Below, piece by piece: positions 3,595 through 50,050 of a stretch of DNA of 61,794 nucleotides. The translations under genes were made by a program, and so were the position numbers. Position 1 is the first letter of the stretch, and the number at the start of each line of letters is the position of its first letter. Source of the DNA: Bacteroidota bacterium (GTDB taxonomy: Bacteria; Bacteroidota; Ignavibacteria; UBA10030; SZUA-254); assembly GCA_030019075.1 (NCBI GenBank), contig JASEHD010000002.1, forward strand, positions 1 through 61,794. Reading direction: 5' to 3'. The notes below the pieces were generated by a model. The model did no database searches. It saw only the letters and a program-made list of their open reading frames with translations, and had not been told where the DNA came from.

Positions 3595-4985
3595 AGAATA
3601 TATTTACTTAAATCTTTGTTTTTGATAATTCGATTGAGAGCATCCTCAACCATATCTTTTGTAATCATTATCGTCTTTCCAACATAGACATCCGGAGCTT
3701 CAAAAAGAATTTCTTCCAACAGTGTGGTCATAATTGTATGAAGCCGCCGGGCACCAATATTTTCCACCTGCTCGTTAACCTGAGCAGCTAACTTTGCAAT
3801 TTCTCGTATTCCTTCCTCTAAGAATTCTAATTTTACACCTTCTGTCTCCAATAAGGCAGCGTATTGTTTGATGAGCGCGTTGCGTGGTAATGTTAATATT
3901 TTTACAAAGTCATCTTCGTTCAAACTATTTAGCTCAACCCGAATTGGGAATCGTCCTTGCATCTCTGGTATCAAGTCCGATGGCTTTGATACATGAAATG
4001 CACCGGAGGCGATAAAGAGGATGTGATCAGTTTTTACCATACCATATTTTGTCAAGACTGTAGATCCCTCGACAATAGGCAGCAAATCACGCTGAACACC
4101 TTCGCGCGATACATCGGGCCCAGCACTGTGTCCACGTTCTCCTGCGATTTTATCAATCTCGTCAATGAAAACAATACCTGAATTTTCTACCCGTTCCAGT
4201 GCATCTTTAACGATAGATTCAGTATCAATTAATTTTTGTATTTCTTCCTGAACAAAAATATTCCGTGCTTCTGCAATCGACATTTTTCTCTTTTTTGTTT
4301 TCTTAGGAAGAATATTTCCGAACATCTCTTGAATGTTCAATCCCATTTCTTCCATGCTTACGGGTCCGAATATTTGCATCGAGGGAAGCTGATTCGTAGT
4401 TACATCAACTTCAATCATTCTATCTTCCATTTCCCCGGAGAGAAGTTTCTCACGAAATTTATCACGTGTTGCACAATTATCGTCCGACTCAATACCGTTT
4501 TCAACAGCTATGGTACCTGCTTCAACAGGATGCCGCCGTTTCATAGGTGGCAAAAGTGTATCTAAGATTCGTTCTTCTGCTTGTCTGACTGCCTTATCAT
4601 GTACCTCAGAAGATCTTGCACTTTTTAACATGTTGACAGCAAACTCGGTTAGGTCTCTTATCATAGATTCAACATCGCGGCCAACATAACCGACCTCAGT
4701 AAACTTTGATGCTTCAACTTTGATAAAAGGTGCATTTACTAATTTTGCTAAACGACGAGCAATCTCGGTTTTACCTACACCTGTTGGTCCGATTAGAATA
4801 ATATTATTTGGCATGATTTCTTCACGCATAGGCTCCTGTGTCTGGAGCCGGCGCCATCTGTTGCGGATAGCAATCGCAACTGATTTTTTTGCTGCCTGCT
4901 GACCAATGATATACTTATCTAATTCACGAACGATTTCACGTGGTGTCAATTCCCGTATAGTTTCTTTTTTCAATTTTCGATTCAT
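3591..4985 (-). CDS. hslU: ATP-dependent protease ATPase subunit HslU
   Basis: Walker [16 protein letters not shown] and typical HslU N-terminus [17 protein letters not shown]. The start at 4985 (MNRKL) overlaps the hslV stop as TAATG. Confidence 0.93.
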
Positions 4986-7022: not shown

Positions 7023-7601
7023 TTACAATAGATTTGAATTGTTATTATAATATAAACATATATCACGAAATTTGTTGTACCATTCTTCTCCATTTTTACG
7101 TATGAGTGCATCTTTTACAAAATCGAATAATTGTTCTTTTTTAAGCGTACCAAATATTCTTGCCGAATCACACTCGGCAATTCGTTCAAGTCTGAGCTGC
7201 TCGTTATTTCCATAAGTAACCCGAATCGGGAACAAATGACACGAAATCGGCTTCCGCCATTTCGTTTTCCCTTCGACTAACGCTTTTTCAAGTGAGCATC
7301 GCGCGATATCATCTTCAAAGTAGGTAAATACACAAGCTCTGTTGTCGATGCAGACTGTCGTGAAACTTCCCAGGTCTCCTTCAACGAAACCATGTGTTTC
7401 AATTATTTGTAGATGCTGCTCGCTTAAATATTGCCTGACGAACGGATACGCGCACTGAAGCTCAGGAAGCTCATCATCTCTTATCGGAGCGCCACGACTA
7501 CCATAGAGGGTACAACATGCGCCTTTACATTGTGAGAGATTGCAGGCGAAACGTTCATAGGCAATATCGTCTTCAATAACTATATCGCCTATGGAAAACA
7601 T
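7023..7601 (-). CDS. DUF3109-family Cys-rich protein
   Basis: 192 aa. The CNLSQCKGACC motif near the N-terminus is as in DUF3109 proteins (recollection). Confidence 0.55.
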   Translation of the reverse strand: MFSIGDIVIEDDIAYERFACNLSQCKGACCTLYGSRGAPIRDDELPELQCAYPFVRQYLSEQHLQIIETHGFVEGDLGSFTTVCIDNRACVFTYFEDDIARCSLEKALVEGKTKWRKPISCHLFPIRVTYGNNEQLRLERIAECDSARIFGTLKKEQLFDFVKDALIRKNGEEWYNKFRDICLYYNNNSNLL

Positions 7602-7639: not shown

Positions 7640-8773
7640 TTAATTTTTCACGAACATTTTTCCGGGCAATTGTTTAACTAACCCTTTGAATTCTAAACTA
7701 AGTAGATTAACGAGAACATCAGATGTTGTTAATATTGCCGCCTCAGCAATCGAATCAATGTGGGAAGGATTTTCTGTGAGTACATCATAAATCGATCGTT
7801 CAAATAGAGTGAGAGATGGAAGTTGTTTTATTTCATCATGGTCTTTGGGTTTTATGAGGGGTTTTAGCTTTGTTGAAAGCTCTTCTAATATATCATCAAT
7901 GCTCTCTATTAATTTTGCACGCCCTTCTTTGATAAGTAAATGGCACCCGCGACTACGCTTCGAATTAACCAATCCGGGCAATGCAAATACTTCCCTGTTC
8001 TGATCTAATGCGGTATTGGCTGTAATCATTGCACCGCCATTTATATCGGTTTCGATAATTACCGTACCAAGAGATAATCCACTGATAATACGATTGCGAC
8101 GAGGGAAATTAACTGCATCGGGTTTGGCACCCATTTCATATTCACTGATAACAGCCCCACAACCGACAATTCGCTCGAATAAATTTTTATTCTCTGGAGG
8201 ATAAATAACATCCAGCCCTGATCCGATGACAGACAATGTTCGCCCGTCTGTTTTAATTGCCGCATGGTGTGCCACGGTATCGATACCGCGAGCCAAACCA
8301 CTCACGATGGTTATCCCAAGTACTGCTAATTCCTGACTTATTTTTTCTGTCATACGGACACCGTAATCGGATGGAGTGCGCGTCCCAACAATTGCAATTG
8401 CATACATATCTTTATCTGTGAACTCTCCCCGAACAAAAAGGAAAGGGGGTGAATCATAAATTTTCTTTAAGTTTTCAGGATATTGTTTATCCAAAAATGT
8501 TATAACTTTTCCCTCAACCTTATTCACCTTCGAAAGCTGCCGTTCAGCATATCTCTTTGCTTCACTATGCTTTTGACTTCTTACGAAATGAACAATCGTT
8601 GAAGCGAGTTTCCGACTAAATCCTTCCACTATCGCTATTTCCCTTATTGATGCAGTAAGTACTTCGTCGGTATTACCAAAATGCGATATGAGCATCCGCA
8701 ATCGATTTGAACCGATTCCAGGAATCTGAGACAATGTAAGAAGATCAAAAACAGAAATCACTTTTTCCCCCAT
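7640..8773 (-). CDS. dprA: DNA-processing protein DprA/Smf
   Basis: 377 aa. Rossmann-like core with GLARGIDTVAHHAAI and FPRRNRIISGLS, plus a C-terminal winged-helix-like tail. Confidence 0.88.
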   Translation of the reverse strand: MGEKVISVFDLLTLSQIPGIGSNRLRMLISHFGNTDEVLTASIREIAIVEGFSRKLASTIVHFVRSQKHSEAKRYAERQLSKVNKVEGKVITFLDKQYPENLKKIYDSPPFLFVRGEFTDKDMYAIAIVGTRTPSDYGVRMTEKISQELAVLGITIVSGLARGIDTVAHHAAIKTDGRTLSVIGSGLDVIYPPENKNLFERIVGCGAVISEYEMGAKPDAVNFPRRNRIISGLSLGTVIIETDINGGAMITANTALDQNREVFALPGLVNSKRSRGCHLLIKEGRAKLIESIDDILEELSTKLKPLIKPKDHDEIKQLPSLTLFERSIYDVLTENPSHIDSIAEAAILTTSDVLVNLLSLEFKGLVKQLPGKMFVKN

Positions 8774-8784
8774 GTTATCTCATA

Positions 8785-9060
8785 TCACTCAATTTTTACA
8801 TCAATTCCATCAACCACCGCAACAATCACTGAATGCACAGGTGCTTTTTTATCTTTGAGTACCTGCGCCGCACTCTGCCCTTCCTGAACAACGAGAACTG
8901 TGTCACCAACACCTGCATCTACCGAGTCGAGCGCCAACAAATCCCTCCCAATCAGATTTCCTTCAAGGTCAATCGGCTGTACAATCAGTATTTTATGCGG
9001 CTTTAAATGCTCATTCTTCTGTGTCGCAACGATAGTTCCAATAACTTTACTTAGTATCAT
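8785..9060 (-). CDS. EutN/CcmL-family bacterial microcompartment vertex protein (orphan)
   Basis: 91 aa. The sequence MILSKVIGTIVATQKNEHLKPHKILIVQPIDLEG...GDTVLVVQEGQSA follows the EutN/CcmL pattern. Confidence 0.72.
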   Translation of the reverse strand: MILSKVIGTIVATQKNEHLKPHKILIVQPIDLEGNLIGRDLLALDSVDAGVGDTVLVVQEGQSAAQVLKDKKAPVHSVIVAVVDGIDVKIE

Positions 9061-9069
9061 ATCATTATA

Positions 9070-10473
9070 TTAAAAATGTTTTTTGAATTGTTCGACGAGT
9101 TGTTTTGCCCGATCCATTGTTTGTGCCTCAGCAATAATACGGATAATCGGCTCAGTGTTCGACTTCCTCAGATGTACCCAAGAATCTTCAAAATCAATTT
9201 TTAAACCATCCTCAGTGTTGATGATCCCTGCTGATTCATATTTTCGTTGAATCGTTTCGAATGCTCGATCTATATCCTTCCTATGTCCGCCTGAGGTGGA
9301 TTCAAATTTTGATTTGACAATTGAATACTTTGGCAGTGACTCTTTAAATTCGGAAATTGTTCCTTGATATTCCGCAAGCTGTTGAAGGATCAATCCGATA
9401 CCAACAATTGCATCACGGGTAAAGTGAACATCAGGGAGAATAACTCCTCCGCTTCCCTCTCCACCTACAATCGCACCGACCTCTTTCATTTTCTGGGCAA
9501 CGTTTATTTCACCAACTGGTGTACGGATAACTTCAGTACCATACGATTTTGCTATAACATCGATTGCACGGGTGGTGGAGAGATTTACAACAACGTTTTG
9601 AGATTTGGGATGCTTGCCCGCCGAAGGCGGGTGAAGGATTTGGGATTTGGAATTTTGTTTTGAGAGTATGAATTTTACGACTGACGTGATGGTATATTCC
9701 TCACCGAATGGTTCGCCTTTTTCTGTGATTAAAACAAGTCGGTCAACGTCGGGGTCAACGGCAATTCCTAAATCTGCTTTTACATTTTTCACACACTTAC
9801 ATAATTCAACAAGATTTTCTGGAATTGGTTCAGGATTTCGAGTAAAGATTCCGCTTACTTCACAGTTTAGTTCTATGACTTCGCATCCTAAATCACGAAG
9901 CATCTTTGGAACGATATTACCACCAGATGCGTTGATGCAATCCACAACAATTTTAAATTTTCGATTTTTAATTTGTTCAATGTTAATATAAGGTAAACTC
10001 AGAACAGCGCCGATATGCTGCTGCATGAACGATTCGTCTGTAATATGTCGCCCGATTTTATCCCATGCAGCATAATTAAATTTTTGCCCTTCTGCAATAT
10101 TCCAGAGCTTTTGATTCTCCTCAGCATTTAGGAACATACCCGTCTGTGCGATAAATTTCAAGCCATTCCACTGGATTGGGTTATGACTTGCAGTAATAGC
10201 TATACCTCCAGCGGCTACAAGTTTTTCTACTGCAAGTGCAACTGTTGGAGTTGGTACAATCCCTAAATCGACCACATCGCAGCCTATCGAAAGGAATGTT
10301 GAAGACACGAGATTACTAATAATTCTTCCAGTAACTCGCCCATCTTGCCCGATCACAACTTTTCCATGATTGCAGAATTGTGCAAAAGCTGATGAATACT
10401 TCACAATTACATCAGGAGTGAGACTTTCACCCACGATGCCGCGGATACCTGATATGCTAAATATTAAAGACAT
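9070..10473 (-). CDS. glmM: phosphoglucosamine mutase (Bacteroidetes-type alpha-D-phosphohexomutase)
   Basis: 467 aa. N-terminus SISGIRGIVGESLTP, phosphoserine loop TASHNP, metal loop DPDVDR and sugar loop GEGSGG. Confidence 0.8.
   Translation of the reverse strand: MSLIFSISGIRGIVGESLTPDVIVKYSSAFAQFCNHGKVVIGQDGRVTGRIISNLVSSTFLSIGCDVVDLGIVPTPTVALAVEKLVAAGGIAITASHNPIQWNGLKFIAQTGMFLNAEENQKLWNIAEGQKFNYAAWDKIGRHITDESFMQQHIGAVLSLPYINIEQIKNRKFKIVVDCINASGGNIVPKMLRDLGCEVIELNCEVSGIFTRNPEPIPENLVELCKCVKNVKADLGIAVDPDVDRLVLITEKGEPFGEEYTITSVVKFILSKQNSKSQILHPPSAGKHPKSQNVVVNLSTTRAIDVIAKSYGTEVIRTPVGEINVAQKMKEVGAIVGGEGSGGVILPDVHFTRDAIVGIGLILQQLAEYQGTISEFKESLPKYSIVKSKFESTSGGHRKDIDRAFETIQRKYESAGIINTEDGLKIDFEDSWVHLRKSNTEPIIRIIAEAQTMDRAKQLVEQFKKHF
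9596..9665. repeat. palindrome plus GATTTGG heptamer words lying in-frame inside glmM
   Basis: GC hairpin CCCGCC-GAA-GGCGGG (9617..9631). It is flanked by GATTTGG words at 9602..9608, 9637..9643 and 9644..9650. The segment encodes SKSQILHPPSAGKHPKSQN. Confidence 0.7.
10397..10455. repeat. direct repeat copy 1 (functional glmM 5' end)
   Basis: The 59 nt are identical to 11097..11155 at all but 3 positions. The two copies lie exactly 700 bp apart. Confidence 0.9.
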
Positions 10474-10630
10474 ATATATTTACTTTGAAAATGTAGTAAA
10501 GAAGTTGATGAGAATCAAATAATAAAGCGAAGTGCGGAGAGCAATGAGCGGTGAAGCAGTATAATAAAATTTTGTATTTTAAGTGACGAAAGAGTACATT
10601 TAGGAAGTTTACACAAGTTAAGGAAACACT

Positions 10631-10843
10631 ATGGGAAAAGTAAAAGAGCCAGCATCCACATACATTGTGGATAAGGAAGGCAAGAAAACAGCCGTTATTC
10701 TTCCTATCGAAAAATATGAAGAGTTATTAGAAGACTTGGAAGATTTGGCAGTGATTGCTTCTCGAAAGACTGAACCAACATATGACTGGGAAGAACTAAA
10801 AAATAAATTGAAAAGGGATGGGATCCTTTCTGATAAAATATAG
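10631..10843 (+). CDS. type II antitoxin (RelB/Phd-like)
   Basis: 70 aa with an acidic C-terminal half (EKYEELLEDLEDLAVIASRK). It overlaps the downstream RelE-like toxin gene. Confidence 0.7.
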   Translation: MGKVKEPASTYIVDKEGKKTAVILPIEKYEELLEDLEDLAVIASRKTEPTYDWEELKNKLKRDGILSDKI

Positions 10844-11081
10844 GGCTTCGTTTGAAAAGGAGTTTCGGAGCATCCCAAAAGAGTTTACCGATGCTGTTGC
10901 AGTTCGCATAGATTCTCTTTCTCAAAATCCGTTTCCTGTCGGATGTAAGAAACTTACCAATGAAGAATTTTATCGAATTCGAGTTGGCAATTATCGGATT
11001 GTCTATTCGGTCGATTCAAACAGCAAGGTGATAACGATAGAAAGGATCAAACATCGAAAAGATGTGTACAGAAAACTTTGA
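10818..11081 (+). CDS. type II toxin, RelE/ParE family
   Basis: 87 aa. The sequence YRIRVGNYRIVYSVDSNSKVITIERIKHRKDVY is the classic RelE/StbE C-terminal pattern. Confidence 0.85.
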   Translation: MGSFLIKYRASFEKEFRSIPKEFTDAVAVRIDSLSQNPFPVGCKKLTNEEFYRIRVGNYRIVYSVDSNSKVITIERIKHRKDVYRKL

Positions 11082-11096
11082 CAGTGGTTAAGGAAG

Positions 11097-11155
11097 TATT
11101 TCACAATAACATCGGGAGTGAGACTTTCACCCACGATGCCGCGGATACCTGATAT
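11097..11155 (-). pseudogene. relic glmM 5' fragment (direct repeat copy 2)
   Basis: It encodes ISGIRGIVGESLTPDVIVKY on the minus strand with no start codon. The 3 differences from copy 1 all fall on third codon positions (P, V, K) and are synonymous. Confidence 0.8.
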
Positions 11156-11162
11156 ACATAAT

Positions 11163-11368
11163 GGCAGTTCCAAAAACTAATTTTTTGAATCACAAAGTTT
11201 TTACACACCTGTGTGCCTAAACACTTCGGTGTGTAGGCGCAAAGAGCACAAAGAACCCAACAAAATCCCTGCCTGAGTGCCGAACAATTCGGCAGGCAGG
11301 AATACTTTGTGAACTTTGCCCCCGGCTCGTAGAGTGGTAAAGTATTTTGGGAATTTTTTTGAACCGCC
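11163..11368. repeat. MITE-like element related to 3112..3237
   Basis: The left end is GGCAGTTCCAAAAACT. The reverse complement of the right end is GGCGGTTCAAAAAAA. Internal hairpins are ACAC-TTCG-GTGT and CCTGCCTG...CAGGCAGG. CACAAAG/CTTTGTG words are present. Confidence 0.65.
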
Positions 11369-11675
11369 CATTAATGACATGTAGTTATTGAATATTGGAT
11401 TAATGGAATAATGGAATGATGGATATAAATTAGTGAAGATGAAGTTGATAGGGAAGAATAAACCTTAAAAACAACAAACAAAATGGATTCTTGTATCTCT
11501 ACAATTATTTCCGTAACTTTTATTAAGATTTTACTAAGAAAATAGAGACAATATTTTCAGCAGATGACGACAAAATCAGTAAAAGAATTTTGTATTGCGT
11601 TATTTTTGTCAAGCTTGCACTTTGGCATTCATGATTAACTTGAATAAACATACATTTACAAGAGGAAAATGAGAT

Positions 11676-11882
11676 ATGTTAAACACACTTCGTGCAATTG
11701 TTCGAGAAGGAAAAATTGAATTACTTGAAAAAATGGATATCCCTGAGGGTACAAACGTTCTGGTGACTTTGATGCAAGAAAACGATGAAACTCAATATTG
11801 GGTAAAAGCAAGCCAGAAATCTTTGGATAAAATTTGGAATAACACCGAAGACGATGTATATGCACAATTACTTAAAGTATGA
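11676..11882 (+). CDS. putative antitoxin (DUF104/AF2212-like N-terminal swapped-hairpin type)
   Basis: 68 aa. The sequence LRAIVREGKIELLEKMDIPEGTNVLVTL resembles small antitoxins. It overlaps the downstream PemK-like ORF. Confidence 0.5.
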   Translation: MLNTLRAIVREGKIELLEKMDIPEGTNVLVTLMQENDETQYWVKASQKSLDKIWNNTEDDVYAQLLKV

Positions 11883-12117
11883 TGTTCTTCTTCTCCGTTA
11901 TCCCTTCGCAGATTTATCTGATTCCAAGATTAGACCTGCCGTCCTAATCAGCACTCAACATATTTCCGAAGATATCTTTGTTGTGCCTTTGACCAGTAGA
12001 ACAACTTCTTTTTTATCTGGTGAATTCGTTTTGGATAAATGGAATGTTGGCAAATTATTCTCTTCTGATGCAAAAAGATTGGAAGATTCATTACGTAATT
12101 GGTTAGGACTTCATTAA
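11854..12117 (+). CDS. PemK/MazF-like toxin, unusually short (possibly degenerate)
   Basis: DVLLLRYPFADLSDSKIRPAVLIS...IFVVPLTS matches the MazF/PemK N-terminal core. The C-terminal half looks about 25 aa shorter than typical family members. Confidence 0.5.
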   Translation: MYMHNYLKYDVLLLRYPFADLSDSKIRPAVLISTQHISEDIFVVPLTSRTTSFLSGEFVLDKWNVGKLFSSDAKRLEDSLRNWLGLH

Positions 12118-12142
12118 GAATTTGCCAGAGGAAATATAGGCA

Positions 12143-12694
12143 ATGCTTTCAACAAATGATAAAAAAATCCTTTTAGAAACAGCGCGCAAATCAATCGAAG
12201 CGGCAATCGAAGGCAACAAGTTTGAATCACCTCGAAGCGTTTCTTCTGCATTAAAAGAATCTTGCGGCGCATTTGTAACACTTCACAAATATGGCGAGTT
12301 GCGCGGCTGCATAGGTTATATCGAAGGTGTTCTACCATTAATCGAAACTGTCAAAGATGTTGCCGCAAAAGCTGCCACAGAAGATTATCGCTTTAACCCG
12401 GTTACTCAAGATGAAATGCCAGAGATCGATATTGAAATCTCCGTTCTAACTCCATTGAGACTCATTAAAGATATAAACGAAATCGAAGTAGGTAAACATG
12501 GAATCGTTATGCAGCGTGAACACAATCGCGGCTTGCTGCTGCCGCAAGTAGCTACCGAATACGGATGGGACAGAGAAACATTTTTAAACCAGACTGCACA
12601 CAAAGCTGGATTGAGTGCAGATGCTTGGAAAAAACCTGACACAAATATTTATATTTTCAGCGCTGAAATCTTTGGCGAGGAGAAAAACAGATGA
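12143..12694 (+). CDS. amrA: AmmeMemoRadiSam system protein A (AMMECR1 domain)
   Basis: 183 aa with CGAFVTLHKYGELRGCIGYIEG and the LLLPQVA motif. Confidence 0.88.
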   Translation: MLSTNDKKILLETARKSIEAAIEGNKFESPRSVSSALKESCGAFVTLHKYGELRGCIGYIEGVLPLIETVKDVAAKAATEDYRFNPVTQDEMPEIDIEISVLTPLRLIKDINEIEVGKHGIVMQREHNRGLLLPQVATEYGWDRETFLNQTAHKAGLSADAWKKPDTNIYIFSAEIFGEEKNR

Positions 12695-13527
12695 TCGTTC
12701 GTCAACCCGTGGTTGCCGGGATGTTTTACCCGGTTAATCCAAGAACACTTGAAAACGAAATTGGCCAGATGCTTTCGAAAGCAGCGATCAATCCATCCGC
12801 CTCAGTCAGACATGGAAATCTCATCGCAATCATCGTGCCTCATGCTGGTTATGTGTACTCAGGGTTGACTGCTGCACATGCGTATAAACTACTTCAACAA
12901 ACCTCTTTCGATACGGTTGTGATCATCTCTCCAAGTCACCGTGAATATTTTCAGGGAATTTCAGTATACAGCGGTGATGTTTACCGAACACCTCTCGGCG
13001 ATATTGCCATAGATGAAGACATACGGGAAAAACTTGTTAAGGATGATAAACTAATCGAAGCATCCACACACGGTCATACTGCTGAACATGCCATCGAAGT
13101 GCAGCTTCCATTTTTACAAAAAGTATTAAAAAATTTTAAAATCGTTCCAATTGTAATGAGCGACCAAGGAAGTGAGCTATGCTACCATCTCGCAGATAGA
13201 CTTGCAGAAGTCCTCAAGGACAAGAAAGCATTAATCGCTGCTTCTACCGACCTCTCACATTATCACACAGCATATGAAGCGGATAAATTAGATAAAATAG
13301 TGATTGATGACGTTGCACACTTTGATTATAAAAAGTTAAGTAAAGATTTAGAAACTGAGCGGGCAGAAGCATGTGGAGGCGGTCCGGTGGTTGCAGCACT
13401 CAGAGCGGCGAAGAAACTTGGTGCTAATCATGTTGAAATACTTCATCAATGCAATTCAGGTGACGTCACGGGTGATCGTGATGCAGTTGTAGGTTACCTT
13501 TCTGCAGCAGTTCTAAAAATATATTAG
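12691..13527 (+). CDS. amrB: AmmeMemoRadiSam system protein B (MEMO1 family)
   Basis: 278 aa with VPHAGYVYSG, a His-rich site HGHTAEHAIEVQLPF, and DLSHYH. It has a 4-nt overlap with amrA. Confidence 0.88.
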   Translation: MIVRQPVVAGMFYPVNPRTLENEIGQMLSKAAINPSASVRHGNLIAIIVPHAGYVYSGLTAAHAYKLLQQTSFDTVVIISPSHREYFQGISVYSGDVYRTPLGDIAIDEDIREKLVKDDKLIEASTHGHTAEHAIEVQLPFLQKVLKNFKIVPIVMSDQGSELCYHLADRLAEVLKDKKALIAASTDLSHYHTAYEADKLDKIVIDDVAHFDYKKLSKDLETERAEACGGGPVVAALRAAKKLGANHVEILHQCNSGDVTGDRDAVVGYLSAAVLKIY

Positions 13528-16841: not shown

Positions 16842-17299
16842 TTTTTGATAAATCAGTAATATTTCGGTTTCTTATTATTGCCCTATTAGCGATCTTGGCA
16901 ATAGTATTGTTTGCAGCCACTACCCAACGACAAATTGATAAAATCGAGAAACTGCATCGTGATCTCTCAGCAATAGCTACTGAGATTGATGCAGAGGTGG
17001 ATTCAATTCTTTCACAATTTCATGTTGAATTGAAAAAAGTTCGGAAGCGAACATTCACAATCCCTAATACAAATTTGAATCGCATTGAGCGCCGGGTAAC
17101 GATTCCGAAAGATGTTGATCCTTTGCATATCAATCAAGCATTGAACTTAATGGCTCAAAAATATGACGGCAGAGCAATCGGTTCTGAGAATTTGAAGGAG
17201 AATACGGTTACAATACATATTAAATTAGATGGTTATATACTCGAGACATTAATACTTAAATCTCGTGTTGAGCAAAAACCAATAAAGAGAAAAAAATAA
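16838..17299 (+). CDS. hypothetical membrane-anchored protein
   Basis: 153 aa with one N-terminal TM helix (FRFLIIALLAILAIVLFAA). It has an ATGA overlap with the crotonase stop. I recognised no family. Confidence 0.5.
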   Translation: MIFDKSVIFRFLIIALLAILAIVLFAATTQRQIDKIEKLHRDLSAIATEIDAEVDSILSQFHVELKKVRKRTFTIPNTNLNRIERRVTIPKDVDPLHINQALNLMAQKYDGRAIGSENLKENTVTIHIKLDGYILETLILKSRVEQKPIKRKK

Positions 17300-41698: not shown

Positions 41699-43747
41699 TC
41701 ATATCACCTCAAATCCTATTCCAGCATCTCTCATCTGCAACACCGTGTTTGTTTTTATTTGATCGTTGCCGTTAAAAAGCTTGTCGAGACATATAAACTG
41801 TTTCGGTTTGCGTTTTATAATTTCTTCGATCGCTTTTTCATTGATTGTATTTAGCGCAATCATCATCTCACCATCGGCAACGCTGTACATGCAGACATCT
41901 TTTACAGTCAGTGTCTCCAGCTTTGCAGTCAACTCGTAACCAGATTTTAGCAAAATTTCCCACGCCATATTTTCTTCTGTCGACAACGATTTCACAGGGT
42001 CGGCAAATGCTTCCATCTGATTCTTCAAGTCTTCTTCGTTCTCGATCGTATCTGTTCGCCATATTTTAAAGTTAGATGGCTCCAACCGGAATACTTTGAA
42101 ACCCAAATCAATATTCCCGGTAGCCGCAGACTTTATGTCTGCGTTCTCAGTGCTCGCACCCGTAAAGGGTGCGGCTACCGCCCCATGCAACGACAATTCC
42201 TCTTGTTTCCCCTTTTTATCATTTTTATCACCGTCATCAGCGGTATCAGCGGTTCTGATTTTTTTTATCACTCTCCTTATCCTTTCCTTGCATATCTCCG
42301 CAATTGTTTTGTAGCCCGCTTTGTATGCCTCCGATTCTTCACCTGTTTTCTCGGGCAGTTGGACAAGTATAAACTTCCGATTACCGCTGTCTTCTCTGTT
42401 CAACTCCAACACCGCCTGTGCTGTTGTGCCGCTACCAGCGAAGAAATCTAGAATAATATCATCTTCATCAGAACAATTTTTCAAAAAAGATTTTATTAAT
42501 TCTGGTGGTTTAGGATTGTCAAATATATCTTTTACAGAAAAATATTCTTTCAAGACATTCGTACCATCACCTGTTCTTGCCAAATTATATAGAATACTTC
42601 TTATTTTGATTCTCTTATTCAGATTATCTTCAAAATAAATTTTTTCATAAGGAATCCATTGATCATTTTTCTTTTCCCAATAGACCAAGTCATTCTGAAT
42701 CAAAAATTCCATTCTTGGTTTTCCGACTCTCCATCTGCCTTCATTACCGTCTGGTGCAAAGGGATAAAACAATTTTAAATCTGGAGCTTTAATTGCAAAG
42801 TGCATTGTGGGTCTATCTTCTTTTCTTGCACCACTTCCCCATTTTGCTAATTTAATTGCTTTAAATTTCCCTTTCTCATCATTTTTATTGAATTCACTTT
42901 CATCAGCCATGAATATTTCATCTTTCCAAATGAAATTTTCTGATTTTTGAAATACCAAAATAAATTCATGTTCAGTTACAAAATATTCATCTGTCTGACC
43001 TCCGCCTTCTTTTTTTCTCCAGACAAAAATTCCCACAAAATTCTCTTCACCAAAAATCTCATTCATCAACAGACGCAGGTTGTGCACTTCGTTGTCGTCT
43101 ATGGAAACAAATATCACTCCGTCGTCTTTCAGCAGGTTGCGGGCAAGGAACAATCGCGGGTACATCATCGAGAGCCAGTTGGAGTGGTAGCGTCCGCTAT
43201 CTTTGCTGTTCTTACGGAATAATCCCTCCTTTGTTAAATAGCCCTCCTCATCCATCTCGCCAATGCGTTTTAAATACTCTTCCTTCGTCTCGGAGAATTT
43301 ATCGGGATAAATGAAATTGTCGTTACCCGTATTGTACGGCGGGTCGATGTAAATCATTTTAATCTTGTTGTAATAGCTTTTCTGCAACACCTTCAGCACT
43401 TCGAGGTTTTCACCTTCGATGAAGAGATTGTCTGAACCACTGATCTCGCTGATTAAATGATTCCGCTGATTTTTTATCTTATTATCATAACCATCAGGGT
43501 AATCAGCGGTCATCAACGGTTCAGACAGTGGCTTCAAAGTAGCTGTTGTCGGTGTCTGTATAGCTCTGAACGCATCGGACTTGCCCGCCCAGTTGAGGAC
43601 GTACCGCTCGTCAGTAATAGTTAAATCTTCGCCGAGAGTTAGCTTGAGCTTTTCAAAATCGATTTTACCTTCTGAAATGATTTCCGGGAAAAGCGATTTT
43701 AATTTTTCAAGTTGTTCAGATATTATATCTAATGATTTACCGTCCAT
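41699..43747 (-). CDS. mod: Type III restriction-modification system DNA methyltransferase (Mod, N6-adenine/N4-cytosine class)
   Basis: 682 aa. Motif IV is IYIDPPYNTG. The AdoMet motif is DFFAGSGTTAQAV. The layout is typical of Type III Mod. Confidence 0.9.
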   Translation of the reverse strand: MDGKSLDIISEQLEKLKSLFPEIISEGKIDFEKLKLTLGEDLTITDERYVLNWAGKSDAFRAIQTPTTATLKPLSEPLMTADYPDGYDNKIKNQRNHLISEISGSDNLFIEGENLEVLKVLQKSYYNKIKMIYIDPPYNTGNDNFIYPDKFSETKEEYLKRIGEMDEEGYLTKEGLFRKNSKDSGRYHSNWLSMMYPRLFLARNLLKDDGVIFVSIDDNEVHNLRLLMNEIFGEENFVGIFVWRKKEGGGQTDEYFVTEHEFILVFQKSENFIWKDEIFMADESEFNKNDEKGKFKAIKLAKWGSGARKEDRPTMHFAIKAPDLKLFYPFAPDGNEGRWRVGKPRMEFLIQNDLVYWEKKNDQWIPYEKIYFEDNLNKRIKIRSILYNLARTGDGTNVLKEYFSVKDIFDNPKPPELIKSFLKNCSDEDDIILDFFAGSGTTAQAVLELNREDSGNRKFILVQLPEKTGEESEAYKAGYKTIAEICKERIRRVIKKIRTADTADDGDKNDKKGKQEELSLHGAVAAPFTGASTENADIKSAATGNIDLGFKVFRLEPSNFKIWRTDTIENEEDLKNQMEAFADPVKSLSTEENMAWEILLKSGYELTAKLETLTVKDVCMYSVADGEMMIALNTINEKAIEEIIKRKPKQFICLDKLFNGNDQIKTNTVLQMRDAGIGFEVI
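42118..42252. repeat. multi-hairpin plus ATCAGCGG-word segment lying in-frame inside mod
   Basis: The 10-bp inverted repeat CGGTAGCCGC/GCGGCTACCG (42118..42127 and 42171..42180) encloses hairpins GCAGAC-TTTAT-GTCTGC and GCACCC-GTAAA-GGGTGC. This is followed by CATCAGCGG TATCAGCGG (42235..42252). Confidence 0.7.
43447..43520. repeat. second CGCTGATT/AATCAGCG word palindrome in-frame inside mod
   Basis: CGCTGATT (43447..43454) and CCGCTGATT (43463..43471) face CATCAGGGT AATCAGCGGT CATCAACGGT (43492..43520). Confidence 0.65.
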
Positions 43748-48345: not shown

Positions 48346-49362
48346 TCATATTGATAGATTAGGAATAGCATTCAGTGAAAAATCAGAAGACTGCCCTGCT
48401 ATAATTTTCATCCATCCTAACTGTGCAATCATTGCTCCGTTATCGGTACAGTATCGGAATTCCGGAATGAATAAACGAAATCCATTCTCGTCGGCACAAG
48501 CTTGCAGCCTTTTACGAAGCTCTGAGTTTGCAGAAACACCTCCGGCTATTGTAACATTCCTGACTTTCATATTCTTAGCAGCTCGTAGTGTTTTTTCCAC
48601 CAGAACATCAACAACAGACGCTTGGAAACTTGCACAAATATCGGCTAACAATTGATTTGAGATATGAGATATGTGATATGAGTAGTCCGGGGTATGATCT
48701 TTCAGCCAGTAAAGAACAGAAGTTTTTATTCCGCTGAAGCTGAAATCATAACTATCTGGCTCAAGAAATGTGCGTGGGAATTTTATAAAATTAGGATTAC
48801 CATCCTTCGCCAATTTGTCGATTATTGGACCACCCGGAAATCCAAGCCCTAACATTTTTGCAACTTTATCATACGCTTCGCCTGCCGCATCATCAAGTGT
48901 CTCCCCAAGCAGTTGATGGTGGAGAGCTTTTTGTACATATATTAATTGCGTATGCCCACCAGATACAGTTAGACAAATAAAAGGATAATCGGGTTTTGGC
49001 TCATCAATGAAATTTGAATACATATGGGCTTCCATATGATTGATACCCACGAAAGGTATTTTCAAACCGTATGCAAGCGCCTTAGCGAAACTCAATCCGA
49101 CTAAAAGTGCACCCATGAGACCGGGTCCATACGTTACTGCAACTCCTTCAAGCTGCTGTTTCTTGATACCTGCGACAACCAGAGCTTCTTTGACAACAGG
49201 ACCAATCAAACGTTGATGTGCACGTGAAGCCAACTCAGGCACAACACCGCCATATTTTTGATGGATAAGCTGTGAAGAAATTATATTCGATAAAACCTTA
49301 CCATCATCGAGTACAGCAGCCGAAGTTTCATCACAAGATGTTTCGATTCCGAGAATATACAT
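48346..49362 (-). CDS. tsaD: tRNA N6-adenosine threonylcarbamoyltransferase
   Basis: 338 aa with GIETSCDETSAAV, HMEAHM and GGVSANSELR. Confidence 0.93.
   Translation of the reverse strand: MYILGIETSCDETSAAVLDDGKVLSNIISSQLIHQKYGGVVPELASRAHQRLIGPVVKEALVVAGIKKQQLEGVAVTYGPGLMGALLVGLSFAKALAYGLKIPFVGINHMEAHMYSNFIDEPKPDYPFICLTVSGGHTQLIYVQKALHHQLLGETLDDAAGEAYDKVAKMLGLGFPGGPIIDKLAKDGNPNFIKFPRTFLEPDSYDFSFSGIKTSVLYWLKDHTPDYSYHISHISNQLLADICASFQASVVDVLVEKTLRAAKNMKVRNVTIAGGVSANSELRKRLQACADENGFRLFIPEFRYCTDNGAMIAQLGWMKIIAGQSSDFSLNAIPNLSI
48654..48681. repeat. GATATGA-type heptamer tandem array inside tsaD
   Basis: GATTTGA GATATGA GATATGT GATATGA on the plus strand encodes YSYHISHISNQ on the coding strand. 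Confidence 0.85.
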
Positions 49363-49365
49363 GAT

Positions 49366-49402
49366 TATAAATAAGCAAAAAGTTTATTTAATTTTCAAGA
49401 AA
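49366..49402. repeat. 37-bp perfect direct repeat copy 1 (immediately upstream of the tsaD start)
   Basis: TATAAATAAGCAAAAAGTTTATTTAATTTTCAAGAAA is identical to 50014..50050. Confidence 0.92.
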
Positions 49403-49550
49403 GGGAAGGAAGAATGGATTTGAGATTTTCTTGTTGGGAGTAAGTTCCGCTAAGAAGACGGTGGGCAAGTCTATCCAATACCCTGTGTGGGTTCAATTGT
49501 CCGCTCCCCGCAAAACCCTTCACAAGAATCATAGAACAATTTGTTAGGTA

Positions 49551-49937
49551 TTATTTTAGATCCATTCTTTTTATATGTACAAGCCTGCGCCCAAGCATAT
49601 CAACCCAGGCTTGACACTGTTCTAATACAATATAACCTACTAACGGTTCATATTTTCCATTTTCTGGTTTCATGTCGATAAACAACACTTCTGTATATAT
49701 CGGTCTGAATCCTTCTATTTGTAATTTTACCGGCCCACATATCTCGCCCATCTGAGGCGTTTGATTAGCCAATTCCAATTCTATCCGATCGACTATTTCT
49801 ATATCGCCCAATTTGTTTTTCCACGCCGATGGTAAAACCATGTAAGATGCTCCAGTATCAACCAAAGCATCACATGAAATTCGATATTCAGGATTATTAG
49901 CATTTTTTATTTCTACAGGTGTAACAATTCGTCCCAT
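49551..49937 (-). CDS. retropepsin-like (clan AA) aspartic protease
   Basis: 128 aa. The active-site context is ALVDTGASYMVLP. Its size is typical of single-domain bacterial/archaeal retropepsin-like proteins. Confidence 0.72.
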   Translation of the reverse strand: MGRIVTPVEIKNANNPEYRISCDALVDTGASYMVLPSAWKNKLGDIEIVDRIELELANQTPQMGEICGPVKLQIEGFRPIYTEVLFIDMKPENGKYEPLVGYIVLEQCQAWVDMLGRRLVHIKRMDLK

Positions 49938-50013
49938 ATTTTTCTCCTTTCAATGTCGAACTATCAATATTGCAGTTTCCATAATGTTTTGATTCTAACA
50001 ATGTCTATATCTG

Positions 50014-50050
50014 TATAAATAAGCAAAAAGTTTATTTAATTTTCAAGAAA
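50014..50050. repeat. 37-bp perfect direct repeat copy 2
   Basis: It is identical to 49366..49402 and lies 648 bp away, upstream of the protease gene. Confidence 0.92.

Follow-up and report, generated by a model that had tools for sequence, protein, structure and literature searches.

In the metagenome-assembled genome of an Ignavibacteria bacterium (G000; 3.18 Mb in 226 contigs with runs of N, 39.5% G+C), the 5′ end of glmM, the gene for phosphoglucosamine mutase, is present twice, and the two copies bracket a small relBE-type toxin–antitoxin cassette. The window analysed here is the whole 61.8-kb contig C149 of this genome. We favour the view that the cassette was inserted long ago with a long target duplication and that gene conversion acted on the two copies afterwards, a view to which we assign a probability of approximately one half. 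The evidence comes from the anatomy of the two copies, the polarity of the substitutions between them, and an old junction shared with two other members of the genus.

Two copies of the glmM 5′ region

The direct repeats at 10397–10455 and 11097–11155, reported in the initial annotation, were recovered by repeat search and genome BLAST with 56 of 59 positions identical and an offset of exactly 700 bp. A BLAST search of the whole genome found only these two copies (E = 2e-19). The first copy, rightly recognised at the outset as an N-terminal part of glmM, lies within the live gene, whose product begins with MSLIFSISGIRG and fits the family pattern MSL[MI]xSISGIRG (Table 1). The three mismatches, at 10399, 10408 and 10414, do fall as described on third positions, those of glmM codons 25, 22 and 20 (live/relic AAG/AAA, GTA/GTT and CCT/CCC), and all are synonymous. 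The exact core of the repeat is 41 nt long (10415–10455), and a fourth synonymous difference lies at the repeat edge, where codon 26 is TAT at 10396 and TAC at 11096. The chance that three of three mismatches are synonymous is P = 0.017; on the assumption that half of them originated in the live gene, in which none but synonymous changes survive, it rises to 0.067.

The second copy, here called the relic, begins 13 nt past the relE stop codon and is antisense within any relBE read-through transcript. It had been thought to lack a start codon, but a start is present beyond an inserted hairpin element of the miniature inverted-repeat transposable element (MITE) type. This element, with the termini GGCAGTTCCAAAAA and TTTTTTGAACCGCC, lies in the relic, outside the insert, and its right end (11368/9) is uncertain by 1 nt. 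Once 207 nt are removed, the relic start reads ATG TCA TTA ATA TTA TGT ATA TCA GGT (MSLILC-ISGIRG), and the counterpart in the same-genus genome G001 is ATG AGT TTA ATA TTA AGC ATA (MSLILS). This reconstruction would be the most parsimonious one, not a proven one, because of the uncertain base at the right end of the hairpin. With the element removed, the live and relic copies are identical at 70 of 78 positions over codons 1–26, the differences in codons 5 and 6 being non-synonymous. A partial second copy of the element was found on contig C40 (~1663–1776; 82% identity over 114 nt), its homology beginning at GGCA. The hairpin insertion apparently made no target duplication.

The relic also has an upstream part. 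The motif TTG[AC]TTCTCA-N7-CTTT[AG]CTACATT precedes glmM in more than 20 Ignavibacteria relatives (e.g. L004, L010, L013, L016 and L036), standing 12–62 nt before the glmM start across the family, and it probably acts as the glmM promoter. Since the spacer is conserved as well, the motif may be more than a simple promoter and could include a site for a regulator. A position weight matrix (PWM) made from the glmM promoters of the relatives gave the live promoter (10521..10484) a score of 35.6 bits. A degenerate copy, 41 nt upstream of the relic ATG and on the right strand for glmM, scored 12.6 bits; this is the second best score in 10400–12200 and, measured against 3 million genomic positions, exceeds the 99.999th percentile. 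In a plain alignment of the two glmM promoter regions the homology was not significant, and it was recovered only by the family promoter matrix. The untranslated region (UTR) between the relic promoter and the relic ATG holds 8-mer tandem repeats. Judged from its sequence, the relic appears to be a complete glmM 5′ region with promoter, UTR, ATG and codons 1–26, and the promoter-like motif, UTR and ATG imply a duplicated target that ran from the promoter to codon 26.

The 634-bp insert holds relB and relE as the sole genes between the repeats, the relB-like gene preceding relE with an overlap of 26 nt. The closest solved chains to the toxin are Rv2866 (3g5o), RelE3 (3bpq) and P. horikoshii PHS013 (1wmi), all at low sequence identity (E = 2e-6 at best). 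No open reading frame (ORF) or Pfam hit in 7640–13527 corresponded to a recombinase, integrase or transposase, and a repeat search of the window found no inverted repeats bounding the cassette. The repeat, 59–140 nt long, is therefore not a simple target-site duplication of fixed 2–14 bp, in agreement with the initial assessment. Rfam and tRNA scans of the window gave no RNA genes, and exact-sequence look-ups of RelE and GlmM matched no record.

A sigma-70-like site (TTGACA-18-CACAAT, 10/12 matches) lies across the relE stop codon, at 11078–11107 on the forward strand; transcripts from it would begin within the relic and be antisense to glmM. Overall, the sigma-70 scan showed no excess of sites over shuffled sequence.

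Polarity of the substitutions and the shared junction

Two other members of the genus served as outgroups: G001, whose GlmM is 80% identical, and L125, a Logan contig (ERR14788458; GlmM 79–80% identical) that ends before the position equivalent to the relic. In metagenome contigs no closer relatives were found, the best glmM match being 65% identical. Codons 20, 22 and 25 are CCC, GTT and AAA in G001, L125 and the relic alike, and CCT, GTA and AAG only in the live copy. Because the relic and both outgroups agree, the three differences are derived substitutions in the live gene, and they are exclusively silent because only synonymous changes can persist in a working gene. On the relic side, the derived changes are TCT>TCA in codon 2 and AGC>TGT in codon 6 (Ser>Cys), with codons 5 and 26 ambiguous; each copy has ~3–5 derived changes. 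The silent-only pattern had been interpreted as the sign of a foreign allele, an interpretation that is not needed, since the three changes are derived in the live gene; the live side, moreover, looks vertically inherited rather than recently imported.

The initial annotation had also asked which copy is nearer to the orthologues, and the answer is the dead one. Over codons 7–26, the relic is identical to both G001 and L125 at 59 of 60 positions, whereas the live copy matches them at 55/60 and 57/60, respectively. Over the same 60 nt, G001 and L125 share 58 positions although the proteins are only 83% identical, and the first 26 glmM codons seem simply to evolve slowly in this genus.

These comparisons bear on a rival explanation by allelic recombination, according to which a related genome supplied both the cassette and a piece of its own glmM 5′ region. 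Entry could have been by a Campbell-type single crossover of a circle or tandem molecule in the 41-nt core, or by a double crossover in the flanking sequence. Either way, the repeats would represent alleles of different lineages, one of them a replacement 5′ end. The relic agrees with G001 in 19 of the 20 codons 7–26, against 62% gene-wide (binomial P = 0.001), and no 20-codon window of the real glmM reaches 19 codons identical to G001. Changes specific to G000 are absent from codons 1–19 and number 23 in codons 20–59, the three live-copy changes cluster at one repeat edge, and a crossover within the repeat would in one step leave such a mosaic relic, diverged in its 5′ part but pristine in its 3′ part. 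The agreement of G001 with L125 at 58 of 60 positions, however, marks a slow region in which the relic looks ancestral rather than foreign. The identity profile between G000 and G001 has no significant breakpoint at the repeat (131/153 versus 1024/1293, P = 0.07), the best breakpoint lying elsewhere. The promoter–promoter junction on the live side is common to three genus members, the live-side region has G000-specific changes of its own, including an insertion of ~45 nt, and the relic promoter looks non-functional, unlike what is expected for the former working start of the host. We regard allelic recombination as a minority explanation, with perhaps some chance of being correct. A recent import from a G001-like donor, in particular, was dropped as the main reading on account of the 58/60 conservation between G001 and L125 and the missing breakpoint at the repeat. 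From the proposal that relBE had been imported with a diverged but functional 5′ end, the recombination scar around a mobile relBE is retained, while a foreign allele is not required.

In G001, 312 bp separate the divergently oriented AMMECR1 and glmM genes; this interval lacks toxin–antitoxin genes and the relic, and glmM has a single start. Of the 43 nt that precede G001 glmM, 41 are identical to window 10520–10478, and a block adjoining this glmM promoter, TATTTTAAGTGAGGAAGGAGTACATTTA, matches 10575–10602 of the putative relBE promoter at 26 of 28. Past this block, a search for a relB remnant was not significant (alignment score 42 versus a shuffle mean of 41). L125 is collinear with window 10469–10688 at ~92% identity, from the glmM start through both promoters to relB codons 1–19; after codon 19 it continues into a different antitoxin-like ORF (MTQAIKEARKLYRFRELKYVYSDKKKPEAVLI..., L125:1-157), which suggests that the cassette in L125 was replaced by recombination inside relB. 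Neither G001 nor L125 has the stretch of ~45 nt that lies in 10522–10571, between the glmM and relBE promoters.

All three genus members thus share the junction between the glmM and relBE promoters, which makes the left glmM–relBE junction an ancestral feature of the genus and the site an old toxin–antitoxin hotspot, with an intact relBE in G000, a replaced one in L125 and only the promoter in G001. The relBE promoter block, which moves together with the cassette, has no second occurrence in G000. Besides the window, just three of the fetched loci carry it: L125, G001, from which relBE is missing, and L117, where a relBE follows it in an unrelated context. Since G001 retains it, this genome would represent a deleted site rather than a never-occupied one. 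Inspection of the glmM upstream regions of relatives, as proposed initially, thus did yield a genome without relBE and relic, but one that keeps the relBE promoter block and is not a clean empty site.

On the other side of the site, the native leader block of the amrA (AMMECR1) operon is the far limit of G000-specific material; its counterpart in G001 (7528–7571) lies 18–62 nt upstream of the AMMECR1 start. A second toxin–antitoxin-like pair was noticed in window 11535–12142, between the amrA leader block and AMMECR1, consisting of 11676..11882 (weak AF2212-like match) and 11854..12117 (no Pfam hit). G001 7528–7536 matches both flanks of this pair, which hints at a short duplication there, too.

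Origin of the duplication

The events might be reconstructed as follows. A relBE cassette with its own promoter would have entered the compact interval that holds the divergent promoters of glmM and the amrA operon, in the common ancestor of the genus or before it. The target stretch from the glmM promoter to codon 26 (~140 nt) would have been duplicated, one copy staying on glmM and keeping the essential gene working, the other being stranded beyond relE. The stranded copy would have lost its promoter function and gained the tandem 8-mers of its UTR and the hairpin in codon 4. Decay of the relic promoter may have been favoured, since an active one would fire antisense into relE, which is expected to encode a ribosome-dependent mRNA endonuclease restrained by RelB. 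The central coding part of the relic was kept alike, likeliest by gene conversion with the live copy; conversion would work in the middle of a homology block and fade at its edges, which would leave the 41-nt core identical and allow differences on either side of it. On this view, ordinary synonymous substitutions in the live gene account for the three silent differences at one repeat edge. As no recombinase is encoded, host recombination must have made the scar.

A possible precedent for such conversion is found at tsaD in the same window. The similar promoter-proximal duplication noted early on at 49366..50050 proved to be a perfect 37-nt repeat (49366–49402 / 50014–50050). A 128-residue ORF upstream of tsaD (49551..49937, reverse strand; weak aspartyl-protease match) is bracketed (49338–49402, 49984–50050) by copies of the tsaD promoter with the first ~8 tsaD codons, one codon copy being decayed. 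G001 has the same cassette and bracket, and both promoter copies carry A in G000 and C in G001. Because the copies share a genome-specific base, they have evolved in concert, indicating gene conversion at tsaD, and similar exchanges may have taken place between the glmM copies.

Several observations weigh against an old insertion with long target duplication. The relic promoter is only ~55–67% identical to the live one, while in the coding part 3 of 79 nt are derived and codons 7–25 are free of derived changes; such uneven preservation is not expected from neutral decay and needs either gene conversion or selection against an active promoter. The last 3–4 changes at the 3′ edge are all in the live copy and none in the relic, an edge bias with P < ~0.004 under equal rates, unless the three clustered changes were a single event. 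With G001 not a clean empty site, the comparison of filled and empty sites is incomplete. In addition, most of the other relBE homologues examined (L116, L121, L122–L124) have no long repeat.

The repeat might instead be the remainder of a tandem head-to-tail duplication by unequal exchange, to which we give little weight. The 700-bp unit would run from codon 26 through the promoter and relBE, and deletion of the second relBE would have left the second glmM 5′ region alone. The relic, with its promoter-like motif, does lie in direct orientation exactly one unit away, and a 17-nt match to the −35 region of relBE recurs at 11580–11596. Yet an extra, precisely placed deletion is needed, with only ~30 nt between the relic promoter and the amrA leader block, and the gene-end brackets around unrelated cassettes, here and elsewhere, are left unexplained.

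It is also conceivable, although we consider it very improbable, that the relic is not a passive scar and that relBE transcripts end in 66 nt of antisense to glmM codons 5–26 with a perfect match of 41 nt. A consensus scan predicted no terminator between relE and the relic, and since the relic lies so close behind the relE stop codon, relBE transcripts should run into the antisense stretch. If this were true, selection for pairing would explain the frozen coding part of the relic beside a decayed promoter, and pairing would tie the de-repression of the toxin–antitoxin genes to the shut-down of cell-wall precursor synthesis.

Similar scars around other cassettes

RelE homologues with 63–84% identity occur in other Ignavibacteria in unrelated contexts (Table 1). 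The nucleotide sequences of these relBE relatives are ~83% identical from ~45–70 nt upstream of relB to the relE stop codon, with nothing similar beyond. No long repeats were detected around the homologues in L116, L121 and L122–L124; a long bracket was present only in L114/L115. In L114 (GCA_016178625.1; RelE 78% identical), a 116-nt repeat with 81% identity (3651–3766 / 4274–4389) comprises the last ~50 codons of the upstream gene; the displaced copy has kept an open reading frame as far as its own stop codon. In L117 (1054–1197) this gene-end fragment again stands behind relE, the RelE identity there being 84% and the upstream gene a different one that encodes a type IX secretion system (T9SS)-tailed protein; a duplication of this T9SS gene tail was not significant in L117. 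Alignment scores of 72–78 between the L117 and L114 fragments, compared with 17.8 ± 2.4 for shuffles, point to a gene-end fragment that travels with a related cassette, which is a point in favour of allelic recombination at glmM. Gene-end fragments can, it seems, travel with a cassette, or the fragment of L114 and L117 may be a small third gene of the cassette instead.

A scan of all contigs of G000 for direct repeats revealed more small cassettes that lie between copies of the ends or promoters of neighbouring genes (Table 1). On C182, a DNA methylase and its neighbour are flanked by the last 42 nt of a DinB-family gene including the stop codon, identical at 39 of 42 positions, a textbook case of long target duplication. 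The flanking fragments of the RhuM-Fic gene on C55 have no intact amidotransferase gene adjacent to them and appear to have moved with the cassette.

An assembly artefact, in which two co-occurring strains or species were joined across the glmM core or near-identical relBE copies, is unlikely, and we rank it last among these explanations. G000 is indeed a fragmented assembly with runs of N, and the sister species share the 41-nt core exactly. The exact repeat, however, is shorter than a normal read, both copies have unique sequence on each side, and some real DNA molecule must contain the relE–relic junction. Furthermore, the 116-nt bracket of L114 is also found in the independent Logan assembly L115, and two genomes that were assembled independently both contain the tsaD bracket.

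Table 1. Features of the glmM site, relBE homologues and other repeat-flanked cassettes
Feature	Location	Strand	Remarks
glmM (phosphoglucosamine mutase), live gene	9070..10473	-	Pfam PGM_PMM domains I–IV, E = 1e-34 to 2e-10
Live repeat copy, glmM codons 1–26	10396..10473	-	copy 1 of the initial annotation (10397–10455) = codons 7–26
Putative glmM promoter, TTGATT-N17-TACATT	10484..10521	-	motif conserved upstream of glmM across the family
Putative relBE promoter block, TTGTAT-N17-TACATT, with leader	10572..10620	+	assigned by eye; not called by the sigma-70 scan
relB-like antitoxin, 70 residues	10631..10843	+	PF18506, E = 3.8e-9, above the curated cut-off
RelE/ParE-type toxin, 87 residues	10818..11081	+	PF05016, E = 1e-11
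Relic glmM fragment	11095..11162	-	last base of codon 4, codons 5–26, first base of codon 27
Hairpin element, MITE type, 206–207 bp	11163..11369	.	in relic codon 4; fold -68.9 kcal/mol, termini paired
Relic start, ATG TCA TTA AT (codons 1–4)	11380-11370	-	
Degenerate glmM promoter copy	11421..11458	-	G of -35 lost; -10 is TAATTT
Native leader/promoter block of the amrA (AMMECR1) operon	11490..11534	+	78% identical to G001 7528–7571
relBE homologue	L116		after metH
relBE homologue	L121		between two transketolase genes
relBE homologue	L122–L124		between two menaquinone-pathway radical S-adenosylmethionine (SAM) genes
relBE homologue	L114/L115		after a DUF1702-like gene
DNA methylase (N6/N4) and ORF without Pfam hit, probably a restriction enzyme	C182 40704–40745 / 42953–42994		2.2-kb insert
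MNT/HepT pair	C111		between 46-nt repeats
ORF6N genes	C29, C104, C106		repeats of 41–149 nt; one at the end of a large restriction-modification-like gene
RhuM-Fic gene	C55 15865–15943 / 17184–17262		two 79-nt fragments of a glutamine amidotransferase 3′ end, 85% identical

In summary, G000 carries this type of scar around relBE, MNT/HepT, ORF6N, RhuM-Fic and methylase cassettes, and the mechanism probably belongs to the recombination machinery of the host rather than to the cargo. Two outgroups sufficed to reveal that repeat differences consisting of silent changes only can arise by ordinary evolution of the live copy, which calls for caution with foreign-allele readings. Short orphan gene starts and ends beside small cassettes mark insertion hotspots and should not be called genes. 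The glmM site is a well-resolved but fairly ordinary example of cassette entry, and the main added value lies in the outgroup polarisation and in the evidence for an old toxin–antitoxin hotspot.

Comparison with known systems

The closest parallel is the insertion of restriction-modification gene units with long target duplication, which Nobusato et al. reportedly described in 2000 (in Gene 259:99). Insertions of this class are recognised by direct repeats longer than 30 bp and the lack of a mobility gene (PMC2853133), and the repeats often span a gene start or stop and leave the target gene intact (Furuta, Abe and Kobayashi 2010, PMC2853133). The class was described for restriction-modification units, with DNA breakage by the cargo tentatively suggested as the cause (PMC2853133), and a 2013 review lists it only for restriction-modification systems (PMC3874152). 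The glmM site resembles the class in being a small unit without a mobility gene, with repeats above 30 bp and an insert well below 20 kb, and in having repeats that copy the local target, span a gene start and leave the target intact. It differs in its cargo, RelBE instead of a restriction-modification system, to which breakage of DNA by the cargo cannot apply as a cause, and in its duplicated target, a 5′ end with its promoter. The event is also as old as the genus, the relic is partly decayed and split by a hairpin, and the relative G001, which has a single copy of the repeat, falls short of a pristine empty site.

Integrative elements, such as phages and islands with attachment (att) sites in tRNA or protein genes, insert into a gene end and carry a replacement end. 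Here as well, direct repeats of a gene end bracket the insert, the gene stays intact, and an identical core is accompanied by diverged flanks. Unlike in att-site elements, neither an integrase nor another recombinase is encoded in or next to the insert, and related cassettes are bracketed by different gene ends or by nothing, with no common att core.

Orphan gene ends are also known from Rhs, contact-dependent inhibition (CDI) and type VI secretion system (T6SS) effector–immunity arrays and have been explained by homologous or homology-facilitated illegitimate recombination (Kirchberger et al. 2017, PMC5361080). In both cases, an incoming module attaches through homology with a conserved part of a gene, the previous end is left as a fossil, and no dedicated recombinase is involved. 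In the arrays, however, the displaced ends are variable 3′ toxin tips from a single gene family, whereas at glmM a housekeeping gene has left its conserved 5′ end as the relic and the cargo is an unrelated addiction module.

The cassette itself resembles known RelBE type II modules, including M. tuberculosis RelE2 (Rv2866), M. jannaschii RelE3 and P. horikoshii aRelE, in that the antitoxin comes first, the two small genes overlap, and a PF05016 toxin is paired with a RelB-like antitoxin; the likeness is one of sequence, from which toxin activity would be predicted. Because the cargo of the glmM site is RelBE, a cargo-independent host process is implied for this type of insertion. Candidate processes are the single-crossover integration of a circle, homology-facilitated illegitimate recombination (PMC5361080), and unequal exchange.

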